Below, one piece after another: positions 1 through 34,991 of a stretch of 35,693 bases of DNA (positions are counted from its first letter, which is position 1; the number at the start of each line of letters is the position of its first letter). Under the pieces are notes generated by a model that did no database searches, had not been told where the DNA came from, and saw only the letters and a list, made by a program, of their open reading frames with translations. A program made the translations under genes and the position numbers. Source of the DNA: a virus. The DNA lies in the UHGV virus genome UHGV-0241471, one strand, 5' to 3'.

Positions 1-137
1 GCGTTAAATCTAATCAGGCTAGTTTGTTAGTGGCGTGTCTGTCCGCAGCTGGCAAGCGAATGTAAAGACTGACTAAGCATGTAGTGCCGAGGATGTAGGA
101 ATTTCGGACGCGGGTTCAACTCCCGCCAGCTCCACCA
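1..137 (+). ncRNA. ssrA: tmRNA (SsrA) 3' portion, ending in CCA at 135-137; gene continues upstream of the window
   Basis: Recognised from memory of enterobacterial ssrA 3' end (…GTCCGCAGCTGGCAAGCGAATGTAAAGACTGACTAAGCATGTAG…GGACGCGGGTTCAACTCCCGCCAGCTCCACCA); T-arm-like hairpin and CCA end visible. Confidence 0.9.
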
Positions 138-245: not shown

Positions 246-1019
246 TTACAACTTAAAGAGTTTTGCTTGCCCTGGATTAACAGCTTCGACGTAGTTTTTG
301 ACCCCTATTCTGTGCGGCTCATAATTGCTTGAATAGAAATCAATCAGGAAGTCACTCATTTTCTGAGATGTGACTTTCATAACTCCCTTACTCAAAGTTA
401 AATTAAACACGCTAATCTTTGACGATGGTGCCTGAGTTTTACTCATGTTGGCTTGATAACCAGATTTACGCATTGCCACTAGTGCTTCGTCGTAAGCCGC
501 TTGTAATTGGGCCAAATCGTTTGACGAGATGATCACATCATCCATAAACACACTTAGCTTGAGATCATGATGTTTGTTCAATCGGCGTAGTAAGCTACCA
601 AAATAACTTTTATCTAAGCAGAGGGTTGCAAGTATTGGAGATTGAACAAAACCAAAAGGGAGGACATGCTTATGTGGACTATGGGACAAGTTTCTTACAG
701 TTGAAAATGTTGAGATTTCCCGCGCTTGAGAATAGGTGAAGTAGCTCTTTAGATCACGGGTGATACGACTACGGCTCGTTGACTGAAAAAATTGTTTAAT
801 ATCAACAACGGCAAAAAAATCACTTTTTAAGTGTAATCTGGCAGCTTTAAGATGCCCACCAGTTCTTAGATGGTAAAAATAGAGTGGCGGAATCCACTTG
901 TTTCTGACAGCCTGAAGTATCTTCCCTCCGACTTTACGTGCCTCAACGCTTGGGACATAAACCCAAACCCCGGGCTTAATCTCAAATTTATCTTCCCACC
1001 TTTGAACTTCTATTGTCAT
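246..1019 (-). CDS. Compact reverse transcriptase (257 aa), retron/defence-associated RT-like; palm motifs present, catalytic box FMDD
   Basis: Translation shows motif A VVDIKQFFQS (res 71-80), motif B' LPFGFVQSPILATL (120-133), motif C FMDD (158-161, nt 537-548); N-terminal VYVPSVEARKVGGKIL and H-x3-D-F spacing resemble retron-type RTs as recalled. In-frame TAA two codons upstream of the ATG; no obvious SD. Confidence 0.8.
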   Translation of the reverse strand: MTIEVQRWEDKFEIKPGVWVYVPSVEARKVGGKILQAVRNKWIPPLYFYHLRTGGHLKAARLHLKSDFFAVVDIKQFFQSTSRSRITRDLKSYFTYSQAREISTFSTVRNLSHSPHKHVLPFGFVQSPILATLCLDKSYFGSLLRRLNKHHDLKLSVFMDDVIISSNDLAQLQAAYDEALVAMRKSGYQANMSKTQAPSSKISVFNLTLSKGVMKVTSQKMSDFLIDFYSSNYEPHRIGVKNYVEAVNPGQAKLFKL

Positions 1020-1161
1020 GAGTTAAATTGTTGTAGTTGAAGGCCATGTTAAGAACGGCGTAAACCGCACCAACTAAGCCAACAAACGCGGTTGCGCATT
1101 TGAGCATAGCGGTGATCAGTTCAACACGCGCCTTAACTAAGCCAAGTTCGTTTGTATCCAT
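988..1161 (-). CDS. Small hydrophobic protein (57 aa from second ATG; one predicted TM helix), overlaps RT start in another frame
   Basis: ORF with GGAGG 8 nt upstream of ATG at 1161; hydrophobic stretch LITAMLKCATAFVGLVGAVYAVLNMAF; 3' end overlaps RT ATG by 32 nt. Confidence 0.4.
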   Translation of the reverse strand: MDTNELGLVKARVELITAMLKCATAFVGLVGAVYAVLNMAFNYNNLTHDNRSSKVGR

Positions 1162-1179
1162 AACTTGTTCCTCCATAGA

Positions 1180-1362
1180 TACCTGACGTCTCTTAGCGCA
1201 AGCGCATGGCCCTAACTAAATAAAAAATAACAACCAGTTAGCCCAGAAAGCTTAACAAGTCGGCGTCCGATTACATGGCAATCAGGTAATCGGTCCGCAG
1301 TCGCAAAGCGACAAACTACATATCTACGGAGTGGGGATAAATCCCCGCTAACGTCAGGCATT
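1180..1362 (-). ncRNA. Candidate structured ncRNA upstream of the RT module (retron msr/msd-like), bounded by imperfect inverted repeats
   Basis: Inverted repeats CCTGACGT…TAGCG (1182-1198) and CGCTA ACGTCAGG (1346-1358); internal hairpins CCGATTAC/GTAATCGG (8 bp), GTCGC/GCGAC, GGGGA/TCCCC; G-run immediately 3' of the 5' repeat on the - strand. Confidence 0.3.
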
Positions 1363-1422
1363 GTTAATTTAACCTCAACTTATAGAAAAGTATAGTTTTA
1401 AATCATGTAGTTATGTCGCCAT

Positions 1423-1641
1423 TTAAATCGGCAAACCCACCTGTTTAAATTTATGAGGATGCGGCTGAACCGGATTTGACTCTTTTGGCGTTGCAATCGA
1501 ACGAACAAAAGTTTCATGGGTAACAAAAGTATGGCTGCAGTTAATGTTCTGGCACTGGTTGTAACGCTCTTTGGTCAATGAAGATACCTGAAAACTGCTG
1601 CGAGTATGGGCGGCACTTCCACACAGTGGGCAAATCATCAT
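1423..1641 (-). CDS. ogr: Ogr/Delta-type zinc-finger late transcription activator (72 aa from internal MM start)
   Basis: MMICPLCGSAAHTRSS…KERYNQCQNINCSHTF matches the Ogr C4 zinc-finger pattern; GGGGAGA SD before ATG at 1641; the longer upstream ORF extension is unlikely. Confidence 0.85.
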   Translation of the reverse strand: MMICPLCGSAAHTRSSFQVSSLTKERYNQCQNINCSHTFVTHETFVRSIATPKESNPVQPHPHKFKQVGLPI

Positions 1642-8710: not shown

Positions 8711-9277
8711 TCAGGGGGATTCATTGCTCTTATTTGCCGGAAATTTTCTATAAATGGTAGAAACGCCTACATCAAAAATCAGTGCAATACGCTGTCTTGA
8801 TTCTCCGGCCTCGAGTAAACGCCCAATCTGTGCCCACTGTTCGGTGGTCAACTTAGGACGGCGTCCACCTACTCTGCCTTTGGCACGAGCTGCAGCCAGC
8901 CCTGCCATGGTACGTTCAACTATCAGTTCGCGTTCCATTTTAGCCAGGACCCCCATGACATGAAAAAAGAAACGGCCCATTGGGGTGCTGGTATCAATAC
9001 TGTCAGTCAGGCTTCGGAAATTCACGCCACGCTGACGCAACTCTTCTATCAGTGTAACAAGATGCCGCATACTGCGCCCCAACCTGTCCAGCTTCCAGAC
9101 AACCAGAGTGTCTCCTGCCGATAGTGTCCTGAGCAGTTTTTTAAGCCCCGGTCTGTCGGACTTAGTGCCACTGATTTTATCCTCAAAAATCCGCTCACAT
9201 CCCGCGCAGTTCAGTGCATTACGTTGCAAATCGGTGTTCTGGTCATTTGTTGACACGCGTACATAGCCAATAAGCAT
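8711..9277 (-). CDS. Serine DNA invertase (Pin/Gin/Hin family)
   Basis: MLIGYVRVSTNDQNTDLQRNAL… catalytic Ser motif and C-terminal HTH; AGGGGA SD before ATG at 9277; adjacent to crossover site. Confidence 0.9.
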   Translation of the reverse strand: MLIGYVRVSTNDQNTDLQRNALNCAGCERIFEDKISGTKSDRPGLKKLLRTLSAGDTLVVWKLDRLGRSMRHLVTLIEELRQRGVNFRSLTDSIDTSTPMGRFFFHVMGVLAKMERELIVERTMAGLAAARAKGRVGGRRPKLTTEQWAQIGRLLEAGESRQRIALIFDVGVSTIYRKFPANKSNESP

Positions 9278-9332
9278 GATCAATCCCCTGAATAAAAACC
9301 GTGGATGATGCCAGTTAGCCATTATCTCTGCA

Positions 9333-24272: not shown

Positions 24273-25706
24273 TCATTCAATACTATCTAGACGACTAACA
24301 TTCATTTTATTGAGAAAGTCTCTATTAAAACCGAAATGATACCAGTTACTAGTATTTCGCTGGGCCTCACCCTCTGTCAGCTTTTGAGCCAAAAGTTTAC
24401 TGTCATCGATTCCGGTAATAACTGCAATACTCTTGAATCCTCTATGCTGTATTGCTCTTGTAAATAGAGGATATTTCTCATAGTGCCCGGAATACAACAA
24501 CATTTGCGGGTACCAAAAAATACCGGGATTAATGAAGGATATCATAAGAGCAACAAGATCAGCTTGTTTCAAATCATCGAAAGACACATCATCTCTAGTT
24601 GCACTTTGCTTTACTAACTCAGCAACAGGGGAATACAGTCGATAGTTTTCAGGGGACAATTTACTTTGAAGGTAATCAGAGCTTAAATATAACTCACTGT
24701 AATTAGCAAACTCCATTCCCGGACTGGTTATATGATCGGGTAGCAAATAAGATGTATGCAGTAATGTATGTACATGCTGGAAAGCTTCAATTTTTATTAA
24801 AGCCGCCAAAATATATAAAAACGTTTCATACGCAAAAATCTGATGGGGCAAAAACCATATTTCATTATATGAATTTACATTTTTCGGACGATTTCTAATC
24901 GCTAACATTACTTCCATAAACTGTAATAGTGCTTTGGAAAAGTCTTCGCCCTGCGTATCACCCTCAAGTAAAACCCAGTCTGTAATGGCATCCCTAACGG
25001 CAATAAGCTCTTTATGAATTTGCAAAACTTCCGCTGCAAAATCTTCAGTAGTTGGGTTTGTTACGACTTGTAGTGAGATACAATAATTTCGGCACACCTC
25101 TAAAAATTGCCTTCTGCAATCCTTTAATGTCTGCTTTTGATTTAAGACAGCTGATTTTAAAGTTTGAAATTTTGCATGAATTTCATACGTCGGTTTTGAC
25201 GTGTCTTGCTCTAAATAAACCGGAGGCTTACCTAATGGTGGCTTAGTAAATTCTGGTTTTCCATAAAGCAACCTGATTAAACGTTCCCAATTATCATTTT
25301 CTTTTTCTGGTGTTGAAAAATCAATATAGATTCTAGACTTCAGAAAGATTGGAGTATACGGCTCTCCATTATCTTTGTACTCAAATATTAATGGTATAAA
25401 TTTGGACTGCGACACGGATGAATATATTTCCTGGGAAATTATCATCGACTCAACACCGACACCATCTTTTCTTAAATCGGCTTTTTCTGAGTATTTTTTA
25501 TCACAAATGACTAAAACATGCGTAACCGTTTCATCTTGAACCATTCTTTCCATGTAATAATTTTTATCATCCCCTTCTTTCAAGTCATAAATATCTATGA
25601 CAGTTTCAACTCCATCTGCCGCCAATCGTTCAGCCATATCTTTGATATGTTGCTGATGAGTTTTACTTGACCAACTATAGGATATAAAAACTTTTGGCTG
25701 GATCAT
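24273..25706 (-). CDS. SEFIR/TIR-like domain protein (477 aa), candidate standalone anti-phage effector
   Basis: N-terminus KVFISYSWSS…IDIYD…FIPLIFEY fits the SEFIR/TIR pattern as recalled; about 300-aa helical C-terminal domain of unknown type; GGGAGG SD; visibly AT-rich versus flanks. Confidence 0.6.
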   Translation of the reverse strand: MIQPKVFISYSWSSKTHQQHIKDMAERLAADGVETVIDIYDLKEGDDKNYYMERMVQDETVTHVLVICDKKYSEKADLRKDGVGVESMIISQEIYSSVSQSKFIPLIFEYKDNGEPYTPIFLKSRIYIDFSTPEKENDNWERLIRLLYGKPEFTKPPLGKPPVYLEQDTSKPTYEIHAKFQTLKSAVLNQKQTLKDCRRQFLEVCRNYCISLQVVTNPTTEDFAAEVLQIHKELIAVRDAITDWVLLEGDTQGEDFSKALLQFMEVMLAIRNRPKNVNSYNEIWFLPHQIFAYETFLYILAALIKIEAFQHVHTLLHTSYLLPDHITSPGMEFANYSELYLSSDYLQSKLSPENYRLYSPVAELVKQSATRDDVSFDDLKQADLVALMISFINPGIFWYPQMLLYSGHYEKYPLFTRAIQHRGFKSIAVITGIDDSKLLAQKLTEGEAQRNTSNWYHFGFNRDFLNKMNVSRLDSIE

Positions 25707-26008: not shown

Positions 26009-26242
26009 TTAATGCAGCCAGCTGTCGTCTTCCCACACCTTCTGCATAATTTCCATTACCCGCTGCTTATCCTCATCAAGTTTTAAGCCGGTCAACTCGA
26101 TACCGTTGGCACTGCCTTTGCGAATGCGGATCGCCGTCTTGGGATACAGGGGGCGCAGATTGCGGTAAAGCTCGGATTCAAGGGCGTCCAGGGTAGACTG
26201 GCTAATCTTCTGCTCTTTATCGATCATTATTTCAATGCGCAT
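26009..26242 (-). CDS. DinI-family protein (77 aa from MRIEIMIDKEQK)
   Basis: MRIE…DALESELYRNL…DKQRVMEIMQKVWEDDSW resembles DinI; GAGGTGA SD before ATG at 26242. Confidence 0.7.
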   Translation of the reverse strand: MRIEIMIDKEQKISQSTLDALESELYRNLRPLYPKTAIRIRKGSANGIELTGLKLDEDKQRVMEIMQKVWEDDSWLH

Positions 26243-26252
26243 AAAAGTCACC

Positions 26253-26441
26253 TCAGCTGATGACATCCATTGAGCGGTTGTATTCGTGAGTTCTGATTTT
26301 TGCCATGAGTTCATCTGTCAGTTCAGAAACCCACTGCAAAGCCAGCCCCTTCTCTTCATCACTACACTCACTAGCCGCTACAAGCTTAAGAAAAAAATCA
26401 ATGCGCTGGAGCTTCAAAGACTCCAAAAAATAGTCCTGCAT
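26253..26441 (-). CDS. Small protein (62 aa) downstream of a LexA box; possible Tum-like antirepressor N-terminal module
   Basis: AGGAGG SD before ATG at 26441; LexA box about 45 bp upstream; followed directly by DinI-like ORF. Confidence 0.45.
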   Translation of the reverse strand: MQDYFLESLKLQRIDFFLKLVAASECSDEEKGLALQWVSELTDELMAKIRTHEYNRSMDVIS

Positions 26442-26594: not shown

Positions 26595-29009
26595 TTAATA
26601 CAGGTTTCGCCACTTATCATCTTCCTGCAAACGCTGGTTCCGACAGAAGATACGCAGGCCTGCTCCTGACGGAATACTGCCACCGCGAAGGAGCAGATCG
26701 ACCTCTTTCTCGCTGCCATCAAATCCTCTTGACTTCAGTTCATAGACGAGCTGCTGTCGCTGATGGTCTGTAATTCGCTGTTTGTAGTCTTTACGCCGTT
26801 TCGGTTTCACCAGGCGTAACCTTGCAGCCAGTTCCCGGCGCTCTTTTTTGCTCATACTGTGCAGGTAATCGTGCAACTCCTTGTCATCCATGCGGGTAAT
26901 GTCCGTCCTGGTATCCCCATCAGCTGATTTGTCTTTCCCTTGTTGGTTCAAATTTTCAGCAAGGGGACAGTTATTGCCACGAGTCCAAGGGGCGCAAGCG
27001 CCCTGGTCGGCTGCCGCCTCCTGAACGTCAACGGCCTTACGAACCATTTTCCACTTCACGGCATGAGTGCAGATCTTGCCCTCTGCAATAGGTGACCAGA
27101 TGCCATAAATACGAATGCCGTGATCGCCATAGGCGGTCGGCTCTTCGTTGATTTCATAAGCAGTTCTGATGAGGTGATATTTACGGGGAACCAGTACGCC
27201 GCCCTGCTTCATGATGTAGGTGGCAAAACAACCAGCATCAGCAGCAGCCAGGATTGCATCAAGGCGCGGGTTATCCAGTACCGGCGCACCTGCTTTTTTG
27301 TCACCCTGTTGCCTTGCCGCCTGACCAGCCAGCAATCGCAGTTCACGGTAAGCCTGACGCCCCGGAATGCCAAAGAAGCGGAATTGCTGAACACGATGCA
27401 GAGACGCCCAGGCATTCACGTATTCAGCGTTATCACGCAGGGATTTACCCGTTTCCTTGCTGATCTCGCCAGCCAGACCACGCCCGTCAATGTTCTTACT
27501 GATATATTTCGCGATGTAGCTTGTCGGCGTTCCTTTGCGCGGGTTAATCAACTCAGACTTAAAGCGTGGTCCCGTGTTATTCCCCAGCTCCTCGCGGTCT
27601 TCACGAATGGCAAACTTACGCAACAAAGCAGTAATGGCGCGGCGATCTTTTTTGCGCATAAAACACAACAGGTGCCAGTGAACTGTACCGTCATGATGCG
27701 GCTCAGCCACCCGCACGCCATACCAGCGCAATCCGGCTTTGTGCATCGCCTTACGAAATGCAGCAAACATGCCAACCAGATAATCACTGCTTTGTCTTAC
27801 CGTCGCATTTGTCCAGGTCGGGTTGGGCCTGCCGTTATTTAGCGTGGAATGGAAACGTGACGGACAGGTGATGGTGTAGAAAACGGCGCAGTCACCGCGC
27901 ATTTCCGCGATAAGCTCCAGGCCTTTAACACAGGCCATCATCTCATTGCGGCGATGCGCAGGGTTGCTGCTGCTGGCGTTTACCACATCCTCCATGTCCA
28001 GCGTGTCGCCGTCTTCGTTCACCAGTTCATGAGAACGGAAAAACTCCAGCGACTTACGGCGCTGCTCACGTTTATGCATCACGGCTTCATAGCTGACATA
28101 GGGAGATGCTTTTTTGCTGACCAGACAGACAGCACGCAACTGCTCTTCCCGCCATTCGCAACGCATCTTCCATAATTTCCGATACCACCAGTCGGCGCAC
28201 AGCATACGCGCCAGCGAACCCGGAATGAGTTCATAGGGCACAGGTTTGCGGCGGTTTCTTTTCCGGCGGAGTTGCTCAAACGCAGGCGGTATGACATCCA
28301 GTCGCAGGGTTTCTGCTGCCACCTTTTCCCATGTCTTGCGGATTTCTTCCGGCTTAACATCATCGGAGGCGTACAAATCACCACAAGCGGCATCAAGACA
28401 CATGCTCATATGCGCAGCGACAAGGGTGGACAGGCGTTTCACCTGATCCTGACTCATTTCAGGCAGGCTCAGCAGACCGTCCAGCCCTTCATGGCTTGCC
28501 ATAAAACGAAAAGATGCAGATAGCTGGCTGTCGCGTACATGCTCCAGTCGTTCCAGGCATGGCTTAATCGTCTCACGCAAATAGCGGGAATAAGCCTTTG
28601 GCCTGCCCAGGTTGCTGAAGTATTTAATACGTTGCATCAGCGGCTTGCTGATATGGGAAGGCTGGGCGTTGACATCCGCCAGAATGACCATGTCTGGATT
28701 AAAACGCTGCTGCTCATGCGCCAGCTTTGCCCGGCTAATTAGCTTATCCTGCTCCATTTCGCGCTGGACAGGATCACGGGATTCATTAAAGAAATAACGC
28801 TCCCAGACCTGATCACTCAGTGCCTCGCGGCGCAGTTGTTCCTGCTCGTTATCGGCAGCGTACAGAGTGATCAGGTTTGAAAGCGCAGAAACCGGCGCAA
28901 CTTCCGCCGGGTCCAGATAAGGGTTAATGGCCTTTTTCGGGCTGTTCCATGAGAATGCTGCGGCAGCCTCGTTAAAGCCGCAGCAGTTGTTCATATCGGC
29001 ATGGCTCAT
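26595..29009 (-). CDS. Rolling-circle replication initiator, P2 gpA-like
   Basis: HuH-like VHWHLL and active-site tyrosine pair SYIAKYISK seen in the 804-aa translation; start codon uncertain. Confidence 0.85.
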
Positions 29010-29863
29010 GCACGTACTCCGTACACGGCAGAACTGTCCACGCCACGCGAATAATCAAATCCCACCCAGCAGCGCGGCCCGGAAACAGCAATGATTTCTG
29101 TTGCTGATTTACCCTCTCCAGCTGCCACACCGATGTTGCGTTTTGCCTTGATGTAGTGGTGAGTAAAATTGCGATACAGCGAACGGATCAGGGATGTGTC
29201 ACTGTTAGAAACAATGACCGGATGTCCTTCTGATGACCGATGTTCAAGAACGGATGCCAGGTGATACTGGTCATCTTCAGTGAAGCCGTCAGTGTGATAA
29301 CCGGAAAACGTGCCGTCATACGGCGGATCGCAATACACCACATCCCCCGCCTTCAACATCGCCAGCGTTTCATCAAAGCTGGCGCAGATAAACGTTGCCC
29401 GCTGGGCTTTTTCTGCAAATGCGCGAATTTCTTTTTCAGGGAAATACGGATTTTTATAATTACCGTAGGGAATGTTGAAATGCCCGCTCTTGTTATAGCG
29501 ACATAAACCACGGTAACCGTGACGATTGAGATACAGGAAATATACCGCTTTCATGAAATCAGTAATTTCAGTGGAGTAATTAAACTCCTGCCTTATGTTG
29601 TAATAAGCCACCTCCCTGTTTGCGATCTCAAATAAAACTCTGGCGCGAGATATAAACGATTCACAATCAGCGGCAACCTTTTTATAGAGGTTGATTAAAT
29701 CAGGATTAATATCCGCAACCAGATAGCTGGGGTAATCCGTCTCCATCATCACAGCACAGGAACCCGCGAAAGGTTCAACCAGTCGCGGGCCAGCAGGAAG
29801 GTGTTTTTTCAGTTCGGACATAATGGCGGTTTTATTTCCCGCCCATTTCAGGATGGTGCTCAT
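29006..29863 (-). CDS. DNA N6-adenine methyltransferase (Dam family), orphan
   Basis: DPPY motif ([10 protein letters not shown]) and N-terminal AdoMet-binding region; strong GGAGG SD before ATG at 29863; no adjacent restriction gene. Confidence 0.85.
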
Positions 29864-30087
29864 ACAGCACCTCCGTTGTAATGTTTGCCTTTCAGCTCTG
29901 CGATTTCCTGACAGGTAATGCAAAGCTGCACACCTGGAATGGCGCGGCGGCGTGCTGGCGGAATTGGCGCTTCACACTCAATGCAAAGCACGCGGGACAC
30001 GCCCGGCGTTTTGGCACGGGCAGCACGAATATGGCGCTGGCGTTCTTCTTCAACGCGCTGCTGTACAAGATCCATTGCATCAGCCAT
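29860..30087 (-). CDS. TraR/DksA-family C4 zinc-finger protein
   Basis: CIECEAPIPPARRRAIPGVQLCITCQ four-cysteine motif. Confidence 0.7.
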   Translation of the reverse strand: MADAMDLVQQRVEEERQRHIRAARAKTPGVSRVLCIECEAPIPPARRRAIPGVQLCITCQEIAELKGKHYNGGAV

Positions 30088-32444: not shown

Positions 32445-33458
32445 ATGACCATCAGAAAACAGCCGAACGGAAAGTGGTTATGTGAATGCTACCCAAACGG
32501 GCGAGATGGCAAACGCGTACGCAAACAATTTGCGACGAAAGGCGAAGCCATTGCGTTTGAGAATTTCACCATGGACGAGGTAAACAAGAAACCTTGGCTG
32601 GGAGAAAAGGAAGATCGGCGACACCTATCAGAATTAATTGAGCTGTGGTATTCCCTGTATGGTCAAACACTCGCAGACCCCAAGCGACTCATGGCGAAAC
32701 TTGGAATTATCTGTAATGGTCTGGGCGATCCCATCGCTTCAGAGCTGACTGCCGGTGACTTTACGAAATACCGCGAAGCACGGCTAAAAGGTGAAGTGCG
32801 AAATGAAGATGGCACGCTGATGTCGCCCGTTAAGCCCCGCACGGTAAACCTTGAACAGCGCAATCTATCATCTGTGTTCGGTACATTAAAAAAACTAGGA
32901 CACTGGTCAGCACCAAACCCGCTGGCAGGACTTCCGACCTTCAAAATTGCCGAAGGTGAGCTGGCTTTTCTTTCCACGGACGAAATCAAGCGCCTGTTGG
33001 CGGCATGTGCTGAATCTCAAAGCCCTAGCTTACTAATGATTGCAAAAATATGCCTGGCTACTGGCGCACGGTGGAGTGAAGCCGAAAATCTGCAGGGCCA
33101 TCAAATATCGAAATACCGAATTACTTATACAAAAACAAAAGGCAAGAAAAACCGTACTGTGCCGATATCTCAGGATCTGTATGATGAACTCCCCAAAAAC
33201 AGAGGAAAGTTATTCACGCCATGCAGAAAAGCCTTTGAGCGGGCAGTAAAGCGGGCCGGTATTGACCTACCGGAGGGCCAATGCACCCACGTGCTTCGCC
33301 ATACATTCGCCAGTCACTTTATGATGAACGGCGGAAACATACTGGTACTGCGTGATATTTTGGGTCATGCCGATATAAAAATGACCATGATTTACGCCCA
33401 CTTTTCGCCCGATCACCTTGAAGACGCGGTGACTAAAAATCCTCTTTATAATTTGTAG
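32445..33458 (+). CDS. int: Tyrosine integrase (P2/186 Int family)
   Basis: C-terminal catalytic signature HVLRHTFAS … HADIKMTMIYAHF; start overlaps cI stop. Confidence 0.9.
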   Translation: MTIRKQPNGKWLCECYPNGRDGKRVRKQFATKGEAIAFENFTMDEVNKKPWLGEKEDRRHLSELIELWYSLYGQTLADPKRLMAKLGIICNGLGDPIASELTAGDFTKYREARLKGEVRNEDGTLMSPVKPRTVNLEQRNLSSVFGTLKKLGHWSAPNPLAGLPTFKIAEGELAFLSTDEIKRLLAACAESQSPSLLMIAKICLATGARWSEAENLQGHQISKYRITYTKTKGKKNRTVPISQDLYDELPKNRGKLFTPCRKAFERAVKRAGIDLPEGQCTHVLRHTFASHFMMNGGNILVLRDILGHADIKMTMIYAHFSPDHLEDAVTKNPLYNL

Positions 33459-33470
33459 TGGAGACCTATT

Positions 33471-34991
33471 GTGATTCAAAAATTAGATATTCAATCTGAT
33501 GCGGTTGCAAAGTTAAGAATGGATGCTATTCGTTCAGAAATCCAAGGTTATTCCCCTGATTTATTTATCGAATTCTGTATGCAATATAACTTACAAAAAT
33601 TTGAAGATAATATCCACATGTTACGACACATGCCTTGGATTGTTAATTTATGTCTAAAGTGGTCTGCGTCAGTAACTGGCAAGAATAAAAAATTCAAAAT
33701 CCTCGATAAAAATCAAGCAATAAAACTCTTCCAAAAAACTTATGAAACCTTGAACATTATTCCTATCGGTCTTGAGAGGAAGAATGGCATGCATTTCTTC
33801 ATTAGAAATAATCTATACCAACAAGGAATCTACCAGAAAATTGACGCTCTAAACACAATTAGCAGACAAGTCTTTCTATTTTCAGAACTTGAAAAAAACC
33901 ATAAAATAAAGACAAGTTTTTTTACTATCACGAATGTATCTATCGAAGACTTTCTTAAGCTATCTTACATATTAATAACTCACATAACAGAAGAGCATCC
34001 CGTGAGAAAAATGAATGTAGATACATTTACTATATTATTTGACATCATTCCTAGAAATACCATTGAGAAATTTCTTGATGCAATATCAATAAATTACAAT
34101 GAACTATCTACATTTTGCAAATCAAAAACCTATGATAAACCTTTGCTTGAATACTACTCATCATCACCTTTTCTTGAAAAACCATTAATAAAAAAAGGTT
34201 CAGAGTATTTTCAGATACACACACAACTGACTTCAACAAGCATACAGACGTTCATATATGATCTTTTAAGAAGAACTGATGCCGAGAAGTTCATGGATAG
34301 CTTTGGAAATGTATTTGAAAATGCACTGGAATTAATACTAAAAGAAAGCGAAATTGATTTTCATAACGAAAAATACCTTAAAGAACGACTACCTAAAGAT
34401 AATAAAGTAGTTGATTATTTCATTCCACATACTGAGGCAAATATTTTCATTGATGCTAAAGGCGTTGAGATACACCAAAAAGGCATGGTAACATTACGCC
34501 CTGAGGATATTGCAGGAAAAATAAAGAAATCGGTATTAAAAGCAATCGAACAATCTCACGAAGTTAATCGAGAAATATACTCTAATGAGCGAATAATAGC
34601 TCCATTCAGGGCTAACTCATATATCATTTGCATTACATATAAAAACCTTTTCTTAGGCAATGGTAGTATCCTAGCTAATACTTATGCTAAAGATGAGATG
34701 AATAAGATATATGACAAGTTTAAACATAACTATCATATCCCTACAGAGAATATTTTTTGTCTATCATTTGAAGAGTTTGAATATCTCATTGCATCATGCA
34801 AAAGGTTTAAAATTCCGCCTCATGAAGTCTTGCAATCTGCAGTTGAAAAGAACAAAAAACCATCAAGTGCTGCTTTCCTATTTTCCCACCATATAGAAGA
34901 CTATTTTGATAGAGTAGTCAATTCAGTCATAGTCAATGAGGCAGGCATTAAAATGGTAGATTCTATTATCAATAAATTAAAGCCTGAATAA
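33471..34991 (+). CDS. AT-rich cargo protein (506 aa) with PD-(D/E)xK-like nuclease motif; candidate defence or abortive-infection gene
   Basis: GTG start with GGAG SD 8 nt upstream; motif VVDYFIPHTEANIFIDAKGVE (D … D-A-K) about residues 330-350; composition markedly more AT-rich than the phage backbone. Confidence 0.6.
   Translation: MIQKLDIQSDAVAKLRMDAIRSEIQGYSPDLFIEFCMQYNLQKFEDNIHMLRHMPWIVNLCLKWSASVTGKNKKFKILDKNQAIKLFQKTYETLNIIPIGLERKNGMHFFIRNNLYQQGIYQKIDALNTISRQVFLFSELEKNHKIKTSFFTITNVSIEDFLKLSYILITHITEEHPVRKMNVDTFTILFDIIPRNTIEKFLDAISINYNELSTFCKSKTYDKPLLEYYSSSPFLEKPLIKKGSEYFQIHTQLTSTSIQTFIYDLLRRTDAEKFMDSFGNVFENALELILKESEIDFHNEKYLKERLPKDNKVVDYFIPHTEANIFIDAKGVEIHQKGMVTLRPEDIAGKIKKSVLKAIEQSHEVNREIYSNERIIAPFRANSYIICITYKNLFLGNGSILANTYAKDEMNKIYDKFKHNYHIPTENIFCLSFEEFEYLIASCKRFKIPPHEVLQSAVEKNKKPSSAAFLFSHHIEDYFDRVVNSVIVNEAGIKMVDSIINKLKPE

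Follow-up and report, generated by a model that had tools for sequence, protein, structure and literature searches.

The P2-like prophage in UHGV virus genome UHGV-0241471 (35,693 nucleotides, here called the window) carries, between its attL and the late-gene activator gene ogr, a module that consists of only three parts: a structured noncoding RNA (ncRNA), a small hydrophobic peptide (SP) and a 257-amino-acid (aa) reverse transcriptase (RT). Two long-range helices in the ncRNA cross each other, both covary across a large family, and one of them buries the Shine-Dalgarno (SD) sequence of SP. On balance, and largely by analogy, we lean toward reading it as an abortive-infection module of retron-like kind, in which translation of a toxic peptide would be gated by RNA folding together with reverse transcription. 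Positions of the parts are collected in Table 1.

Table 1. Features of the module and of its immediate flanks, numbered from the first base of the window.
Feature	Coordinates	Strand	Remarks
RT, 257 aa; motif A D73, LPFGFVQSP 120-128, FMDD 158-161	246..1019	-	Pfam RVT_1 77 bits (cutoff 29.6)
SP, 57 aa (MDTNELGLVKARVELITAMLKCATAFVGLVGAVYAVLNMAFNYNNLTHDNRSSKVGR), hydrophobic helix, N42-Y43	988..1161	-	Annotated coding sequence (CDS), GGAGG SD; open reading frame (ORF) open from 1176
b2, 3' arm of SD-sequestering helix (UAUCUAUGGAG), contains SP SD GGAGG (1174-1170)	1171..1181	-	11-bp complement of b1
a2, 3' inverted repeat (GACGUCAGGU)	1181..1190	-	Pairs with a1
Invariant 3' block: UUAGUU (1219-1214), hairpin HP3 GCGC-uu-GCGC (1205-1196), UAAGA	1191..1219	-	Invariant columns; HP3 by RNAalifold
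Variable hairpin-rich region, arms 1267-1277 / 1283-1293; candidate msd (template)	1220..1299	-	Length and sequence vary, flanks conserved
HP2 hairpin GUCGC-uuu-GCGAC; family consensus GUCAC-nnn-GUGAU	1300..1312	-	90% of cells paired, 3/5 pairs with double changes; RNAalifold
b1, anti-SD arm (CUCCGUAGAUA)	1321..1331	-	Pairs with b2
UAG and HP1: invariant A1349 G1348, hairpin GGGG-auuua-CCCC (1346-1333)	1333..1350	-	AG invariant in 26/26 aligned loci
a1, 5' inverted repeat (UGCCUGACGU)	1351..1360	-	Pairs with a2
-10-like hexamer TAAATT	1366..1371	-	Predicted transcript start about 1359-1360, first bases of a1
ogr, late-gene activator, flanking phage gene outside the module	1423..1641	-	Pfam Ogr_Delta 76.5 bits; RefSeq CDS
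ssrA (tmRNA) 3' end, integration site, marks attL of the P2-like prophage	1..137	+	Rfam tmRNA 105.7 bits, E 9e-42

The RT belongs to a widespread family. A word-indexed search found 72 relatives, and an exhaustive phmmer scan, which covered 1.84 billion representatives, gave at least 158 clusters (50% identity) with E<=1e-30, rising to 320 with E<=1e-10. With a degenerate DNA pattern for PFGFVQSP...YMDD, 53 loci from genomes and 42 from viruses were retrieved; in IMG/VR the family occurs on 42 viral contigs, often at the contig end. Members come from Alpha-, Beta- and Gammaproteobacteria, where they lie in prophages, plasmids and chromosomal islands, and they include RTs of P2-like prophages in E. 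coli and Klebsiella. Among 5,426 complete E. coli genomes, 28 have the insert of the window itself at 99.6-99.9% identity, as do 13 prophage records from Klebsiella; an assembly collection has the identical RT protein indexed in 2,610 blocks.

SP accompanies the RT across the family: in essentially all loci for which upstream sequence is available, an ORF of 39-80 aa immediately precedes the RT. These peptides share a good SD, a basic N-terminus (MKK..RLV), a hydrophobic or amphipathic helix of 25-35 residues, an invariant NY (LLNMAFNY) and a variable tail, and searches of Pfam, PADLOC and PHROG gave no match for SP. In the window, the small hydrophobic ORF that a first-pass annotation of the sequence had noticed beside the RT (988-1176, minus strand) is called as SP from an AUG at 1161, behind a GGAGG. 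The SP ORF overlaps the RT start by 32 nucleotides (nt) in the window and, in 38 of 39 distinct loci, by 4-116 nt; an SD-like sequence is seen before the RT start in no more than 7 of the 39. Because of this overlap and the scarcity of SDs for the RT, the RT is probably translated by coupling to SP. Neither flank has another ORF that is conserved across the loci, and there is no helix-turn-helix (HTH) gene; a Cro/C1-type HTH gene between SP and RT was not found, the SP ORF running into the RT start in 38 of 39 loci. By analogy with known retron peptides, SP is a candidate toxic effector.

Upstream of SP, the family has a structured RNA, about 190 nt long in the window. The region 1170-1425 (minus strand) folds better than 200 of 200 shuffles (z = -3.6), which, with family-wide conservation and covariation, bears out the earlier suggestion of a structured upstream RNA. 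A TAnnnT hexamer ends 7-8 nt before the first inverted repeat, a1, in about 20 of 29 loci, and promoter scores average 7.3 compared with 5.3 in shuffles. The position of this -10-like hexamer would place the transcript start at a1, as in retrons. The priming G of retrons sits immediately 3' of a1, and G1348 is, by this analogy, a candidate 2'-OH priming G. At the other end of the RNA, the 3' block has invariant columns T1218, T1214, G1205, G1203, C1202, G1199, C1198, G1197 and C1196 (family consensus UUGGUU and GCGC-n-GCGC-UAGG). This block lies just 5' of a2 and may be the region that is recognized by the RT and copied first. A search of Rfam 15 with positions 1-2000 of the window (E<=10) for a retron RNA returned only tmRNA and chance matches. 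A 49-aa ORF at 1212-1361 was considered as a gene and rejected; its span falls within the conserved ncRNA, and its protein sequence is not conserved.

Two long-range helices are supported by covariation. In a1:a2, 7 of 8 pairs have changed on both sides, and 94.7% of cells are paired, compared with 27-44% when the partner is slid. The covariation score of this helix was reached by none of 500 shuffles, and cognate pairs of arms score 8.6, compared with 5.6 for non-cognate pairs. The second helix, b1:b2, is 8-12 bp long and occurs in 25 different sequences; its cognate pairs score 9.1 and its non-cognate pairs 6.8, and it beats at least 95% of shuffles in 21 of 29 loci. These b1:b2 statistics come from purpose-written scripts with cognate/non-cognate and shuffle controls. 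b1:b2 covers the core of the SP SD in 26 of 29 loci. In prophage relatives with 80-82% RT identity, compensatory changes relative to the window are found in b1:b2, and relatives at 80% identity also have compensatory differences in the hairpin of the variable region (1267-1277 / 1283-1293). When RNAalifold was given a MAFFT alignment, it found HP2 and HP3 but missed b1:b2, whose arms fall out of register there owing to variable spacing. The nested pairings a1:b2 and b1:a2 were rejected, since they have no cognate advantage.

The arms occur in the order a1, b1, a2, b2, with a2 and b2 contiguous, so the two helices cross. The helices a1:a2 and b1:b2 form either a pseudoknot or two mutually exclusive folds. 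Constrained folding gave the two folds nearly equal stability: they differ by a median of 0.7 kcal/mol (0.3 in the window), and one is favored in 16 loci and the other in 13. In the window, the minimum free energy structure holds b1:b2 and the centroid holds a1:a2.

We propose the following scheme. One transcript that starts at a1 would carry the ncRNA, SP and RT. In this transcript, b1:b2 would bury the SP SD, and since the last part of the SP ORF includes the RT start, for which a separate ribosome binding site (RBS) is usually missing, b1:b2 would hold down both SP and RT. The crossing helix, a1:a2, would set G1348 beside the 3' end of the template, as in retrons, and RT bound to HP2 and HP3 could then prime complementary DNA (cDNA; the multicopy single-stranded DNA, msDNA, of retrons) from G1348 and extend it from HP3 through the variable msd toward b1. 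Formation of a1:a2, copying through b1, or both would free the SD, giving a burst of SP and, as positive feedback, more RT. SP, a small hydrophobic helix with its invariant NY, would poison the membrane, and growth would stop before the phage cycle ends. The scheme, from the single transcript and priming at G1348 to msDNA, SP toxicity, a phage trigger and a role in defense, draws mainly on analogy with Type VI retrons. A context of defense cargo is suggested by a bSEFIR gene in the same prophage, by the presence of the family on viral contigs, and by the plasmid homologues, which adjoin AbiE, Abi, PIN and ATPase-peptidase genes.

Several observations weigh against this reading. The two helices might coexist as a pseudoknot and not alternate as a switch. 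Coupling means that SP is made whenever RT is made, which is awkward for a strong toxin that has no antitoxin protein. The -35 box is weak in the window and there is no terminator after ogr, with no terminator-like hairpin between the ogr stop and the start of the ncRNA (1362-1422, minus strand); transcription from the late operon or from ogr could enter the module during lytic growth, and expression of the module may depend on phage late transcription. Comparison by hhalign of SP with the single Type VI SP that we compared gave a probability of 0.2%. The YADD and VTG motifs of retron RTs are absent, as the first-pass annotation had already seen: the catalytic box is F/Y-M/V-DD in the family and FMDD in the window, and the retron VTG position aligns to an invariant F205-N206. 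Lastly, the scores of the RT on retron models (at most 63 bits) barely exceed that on a generic RT core model (59 bits), so the case for the retron clade is made mainly by the RNA architecture.

We consider it unlikely that the module works instead as a canonical retron toxin-antitoxin system. In such a system, constitutively made RT-msDNA would neutralize the SP translated along with the RT, SP would be freed by a phage factor able to degrade, modify or bind msDNA, and b1:b2 would only tune expression. This is the established logic of most characterized retrons, it would explain why there is no separate antitoxin gene, and coupling would fix the stoichiometry of SP and RT. However, b1:b2 is as conserved as a1:a2 and isoenergetic with it, which suggests more than fine tuning. 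Retron-Sen3 makes single-stranded DNA (ssDNA) constitutively and is controlled post-translationally, but its antitoxin is an HTH protein, and that protein is absent here.

The relationships of the RT bear on a further alternative. Outside its own family, the relatives of the RT appear to be retron RTs only. The best PDB matches of the family profile are the retron RTs Ec86 (E 2e-12), Kva2 and Eco8 (E about 1e-12), and the best non-family match by tblastn in plasmids is a genuine Type VI RT. Of the PADLOC retron models, RT_VI scores highest on the RT (63 bits), followed by RT_I-B (54), RT_IX (52) and RT_II-A (48). RT_VI matches 34 of 34 family members, with a best E of 1.9e-24, although RT_I-B scores above RT_VI in some members, among them an alphaproteobacterial one. 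The NCBIfam model retron_St85 gives 49.5 bits against a cutoff of 235. Across the retron-type models the family scores 27-63 bits, whereas the one genuine Type VI RT with which we compared it (locus L063) scores 279 bits on RT_VI (E 9.5e-84) and 100-160 on most others. Of the NAxxH motif, the His is kept (H63) and the Asn is not.

Other classes of RT fit less well. The best UG model, RT_UG33, scores 33 bits, Drt3a scores 17.6 bits (cutoff 200), and none of the AbiP2, AbiA and AbiK models is among the top matches of the RT. A UG/DRT or Abi-P2 RT was rejected on these scores, which are at most 33 bits for the models of those classes. A group II intron RT was rejected as well, the model TIGR04416 giving 23.3 bits against a cutoff of 300 and the protein ending about 95 aa past the catalytic box. 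By these comparisons, the RT family stands apart as an outlier: retrons are its nearest neighbors, Type VI by a small margin the nearest of them, and it belongs to none of the 13 modeled types.

Measured against this placement, the label "retron-like" that the first-pass annotation had chosen is a good one. The non-family relatives are retron RTs, a1 and a2 covary and are followed by an invariant AG, and SP and the RNA are conserved partners of the RT. The profile search that it had proposed put the RT in no well-characterized family, with RT_VI on top at 63 bits. Its suggestion of a defense-associated family other than classical retrons is right in part: no retron model exceeds 63 bits, and YADD and VTG are absent, but the DRT, UG and Abi models that it had named reach at most 33 bits. 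The alternatives that it listed left out the nearest described systems, Type VI retrons (ncRNA-SP-HTH-RT).

One possibility, then, is that the module is simply an HTH-less sub-lineage of Type VI retrons, for which no new category is needed; we think this rather improbable. RT_VI is the top PADLOC model for the family, the best plasmid match outside the family is a Type VI RT, the order ncRNA-SP-RT and the sequestration of an RBS agree, and the HTH gene is missing from about 22% of the Type VI entries listed and from L063, a Bacteroides plasmid locus where SP lies directly before an RT with an FVDD box. Yet a strong match to RT_VI, as expected of the Type VI lineage, was not found (63 bits, compared with 279 for L063), other retron types score 27-59 here and 100-160 on the genuine Type VI RT, and in some members RT_I-B outscores RT_VI. 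In addition, SP has no profile similarity to the L063 SP, the conserved ncRNA motifs are absent upstream of that SP, and a2 lies upstream of SP, compared with downstream of it in the "hybrid" RNA (hyRNA) of Retron-Vpa2.

A bolder reading, somewhat less likely than the mechanism itself, is that the family is a fourteenth and minimal retron type. In such a type, a bistable or pseudoknotted ncRNA would couple the priming fold to release of the RBS for SP and RT, making a self-amplifying switch with neither a protein antitoxin nor a protein sensor. An RT of about 250 aa would then be among the smallest natural RTs.

It is quite improbable that the module serves in addiction or stabilization, in the manner of hok/sok, with cDNA made by the RT in place of the antisense RNA. 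The small hydrophobic peptide, the SD hidden by a distant segment, the overlapping and coupled ORFs, and the presence of the family on prophages and plasmids (in one case next to ssb/psiB in a leading region) would all suit such a function. The family is also found in chromosomal islands and beside Abi-type genes, however, and all characterized relatives, which are retrons, act in phage defense. Stabilization and defense are in any case not mutually exclusive.

The state of the RT disposes of the last alternative. The palm that had been read in the 257-aa ORF is complete, with all of the motifs listed in Table 1. Among 34 aligned homologues, down to 30% identity, D73, P121, G123, Q126-S127-P128, D160-D161, S165, N191, K194 and F205-N206 are invariant. 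Nearly all clusters of the family are 250-260 aa long and match end to end. The family profile aligns to residues 59-296 of the 320 of Ec86 RT, in keeping with the near lack of N- and C-terminal extensions noticed earlier, and the family lacks some 50 of the N-terminal and 25 of the C-terminal residues that a classical retron RT has. Judged from the aligned proteins, the RT is intact and belongs to a discrete, compact family. That it should be a decayed remnant of a longer RT, frameshifted relative to 988-1176 as the first-pass annotation had allowed, or a functionless group II intron or DRT/Abi fragment, is hardly credible: although the RT is short and a small ORF overlaps its 5' end, the length of 250-260 aa is kept in more than 150 divergent clusters together with the catalytic residues, the ORF upstream encodes a peptide that is conserved separately, has an SD of its own and does not resemble an RT, and the scores are 23 bits on the group II model (cutoff 300), 17.6 on Drt3a (cutoff 200) and at most 33 on the UG models.

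Some loci of the family differ from the common arrangement or have neighbors of their own. In Candidatus Erwinia dacicola (L030), an insertion sequence (IS) disrupts the module, and the N-terminus of the RT is replaced after the IS. In an E. coli genome (L004, 1392-2504), a DDE transposase lies between ogr and the ncRNA. On Agrobacterium and Phyllobacterium plasmids (L007, 3288-3902, and L009, 3300-3920, both minus strand), the 3' end of the RT is overlapped by a shared, convergent hypothetical gene, about 205 aa in length, which gammaproteobacterial loci lack and which may be a lineage-specific partner. On a Pantoea agglomerans plasmid (L006, 168-3256), the family member is in the conjugative leading region, just downstream of ssb and psiB. 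Leading regions of conjugative plasmids are usually linked with early-expressed anti-defense and establishment genes.

In the window, the module is cargo at the ogr-att junction of the prophage. The RefSeq gene order is ssrA-RT-SP-ogr-gpD, with the remainder of the P2-like tail operon after gpD and with RT, SP and ogr on the minus strand; a terminator hairpin lies 3' of ssrA at 146-173. The 1.2-kb insert that had been reported from the attL-ogr gap is real: the ogr stop (1423) and the 3' end of ssrA (position 137) are 1285 bp apart, compared with about 100 bp between the ogr stop and the attP core in phage P2, where a rho-independent terminator directly follows ogr. The prophage relatives with 80-82% RT identity likewise adjoin ogr.

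Elsewhere, the prophage has at least one recognized defense gene besides the RT module. This gene, at 24273-25706 (minus strand), encodes a 477-aa bSEFIR/TIR-type defense protein (PADLOC bSEFIR 343 bits; Pfam SEFIR and TIR_2) and occupies the position of the P2 tin/old cargo hotspot, adjoining the packaging genes. A 506-aa ORF at 33471-34991 (plus strand), directly after the integrase gene (32445-33458), has no Pfam or PADLOC match and may be further cargo at the attR side or a flanking host gene. The prophage also encodes a Dam-type orphan N6-adenine methyltransferase (29006-29923, minus strand; PADLOC oMTase 368 bits), a DinI-like protein (26009-26314, minus strand) and, beside the tail-fiber genes, a Cin/Gin-type invertase (Resolvase and HTH_7; 8711-9322, minus strand).

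We found no published description of this RT family, and no relevant paper names the E. coli RefSeq accession. Preprints since 2025 have already put forward the principle that a retron RNA gates an SP toxin. What is distinctive here is the minimal RT, the lack of a protein regulator, the translational coupling of SP and RT, and the crossing, isoenergetic helices. If confirmed, the module would be a widespread retron-like system without a strong match to any PADLOC retron-type model. It would also, with three parts and with every RNA helix open to mutation and compensation, be a very simple example of toxin de-repression by reverse transcription, as recently proposed. A 257-aa self-priming RT with a short ncRNA would suit retron-based genome editing and in-cell production of DNA. 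For P2-like phages, the module shows accessory cargo at the ogr-att junction, besides the known tin/old hotspot; the text of the study of that hotspot (Rousset 2022) never mentions the ogr locus.

The nearest described systems are Type VI retrons, which include Retron-Vpa2, Retron-Eco12 and Retron-Sen3 (Mestre et al. 2020, PMC7736814; bioRxiv 10.1101/2025.10.22.683967; bioRxiv 10.64898/2026.04.27.721009). In these systems SP acts as the toxin, and the ncRNA represses translation of SP or sequesters its RBS. According to the Retron-Vpa2 preprint, SP is a toxin encoded on the same hybrid RNA as msr-msd, that RNA represses SP translation, and phage-induced msDNA de-represses it. The Retron-Sen3 preprint describes constitutive ssDNA and post-translational control through an HTH antitoxin. 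The module resembles Type VI in having a structured ncRNA followed by a small helical or hydrophobic SP and then a short RT, in the burial of the SP RBS in the ncRNA (here by b1:b2), in terminal inverted repeats that resemble a1 and a2, and in having RT_VI as the retron model with the highest score. The HTH gene is likewise missing, and an F-x-DD box present, in some Type VI loci. For example, L063, on Bacteroides uniformis plasmid pBUN2 (1230-2615), has a genuine Type VI RT, immediately preceded by a basic/hydrophobic SP of 71-73 aa without an intervening HTH gene, and a 13-nt direct repeat (TTTTAGGCACGTG, two copies) just before SP. This arrangement indicates that adjacency of SP and RT and F-x-DD boxes occur inside Type VI. 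The module differs from Type VI in that it has no gene for the Cro/C1 HTH protein that serves as antitoxin or regulator, its RT is 20-40 aa shorter, by profile its SP family (MKK..RLV..NMAFNY) has no relationship to the single Type VI SP compared, its ncRNA has invariant motifs of its own (GUCAC hairpin, UUGGUU, GCGC-n-GCGC-UAGG), a2 precedes the sequence that codes for SP, and the SP ORF overlaps the RT start.

Classical retrons such as Retron-Eco1/Ec86 (Type II-A) likewise have an ncRNA immediately upstream of the RT, with covarying a1 and a2, a conserved G after a1, and an msd where the variable internal stem region lies here; Ec86 is also among the nearest solved structures by sequence. 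In contrast to classical retrons, the module has F/YMDD in place of YADD, an invariant FN in place of VTG, a truncated RT at both ends, and no match to a retron msr in Rfam. The effector here is a 40-80-aa peptide encoded between the ncRNA and the RT, and an extra SD-sequestering helix crosses a1:a2.

The well-established type I toxin-antitoxin system hok/sok is a mechanistic analogue only, with no sequence relationship to the module. Both have a small peptide (membrane-active in hok/sok), an SD hidden by long-range intramolecular pairing, and overlapping, coupled reading frames, and both are carried by plasmids and prophages. Unlike hok/sok, the module has no evident antisense RNA gene, and it has a conserved RT and retron-like priming elements.

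Lastly, P2-like prophages are known to carry another RT, that of Abi-P2 (Odegrip 2006, as cited in PMC9122126), and the UG-DRT reverse transcriptases form a further group (Mestre 2022, PMC9226505). These RTs have lengths of 400-600 aa or more and do not use an a1/a2 ncRNA for priming, the UG and Abi models score at most 33 bits on the RT described here, and the module is at ogr-att and not in the tin/old hotspot. The module shares with them the association with defense and the carriage of an RT as accessory cargo in a variable locus of P2-like phages.

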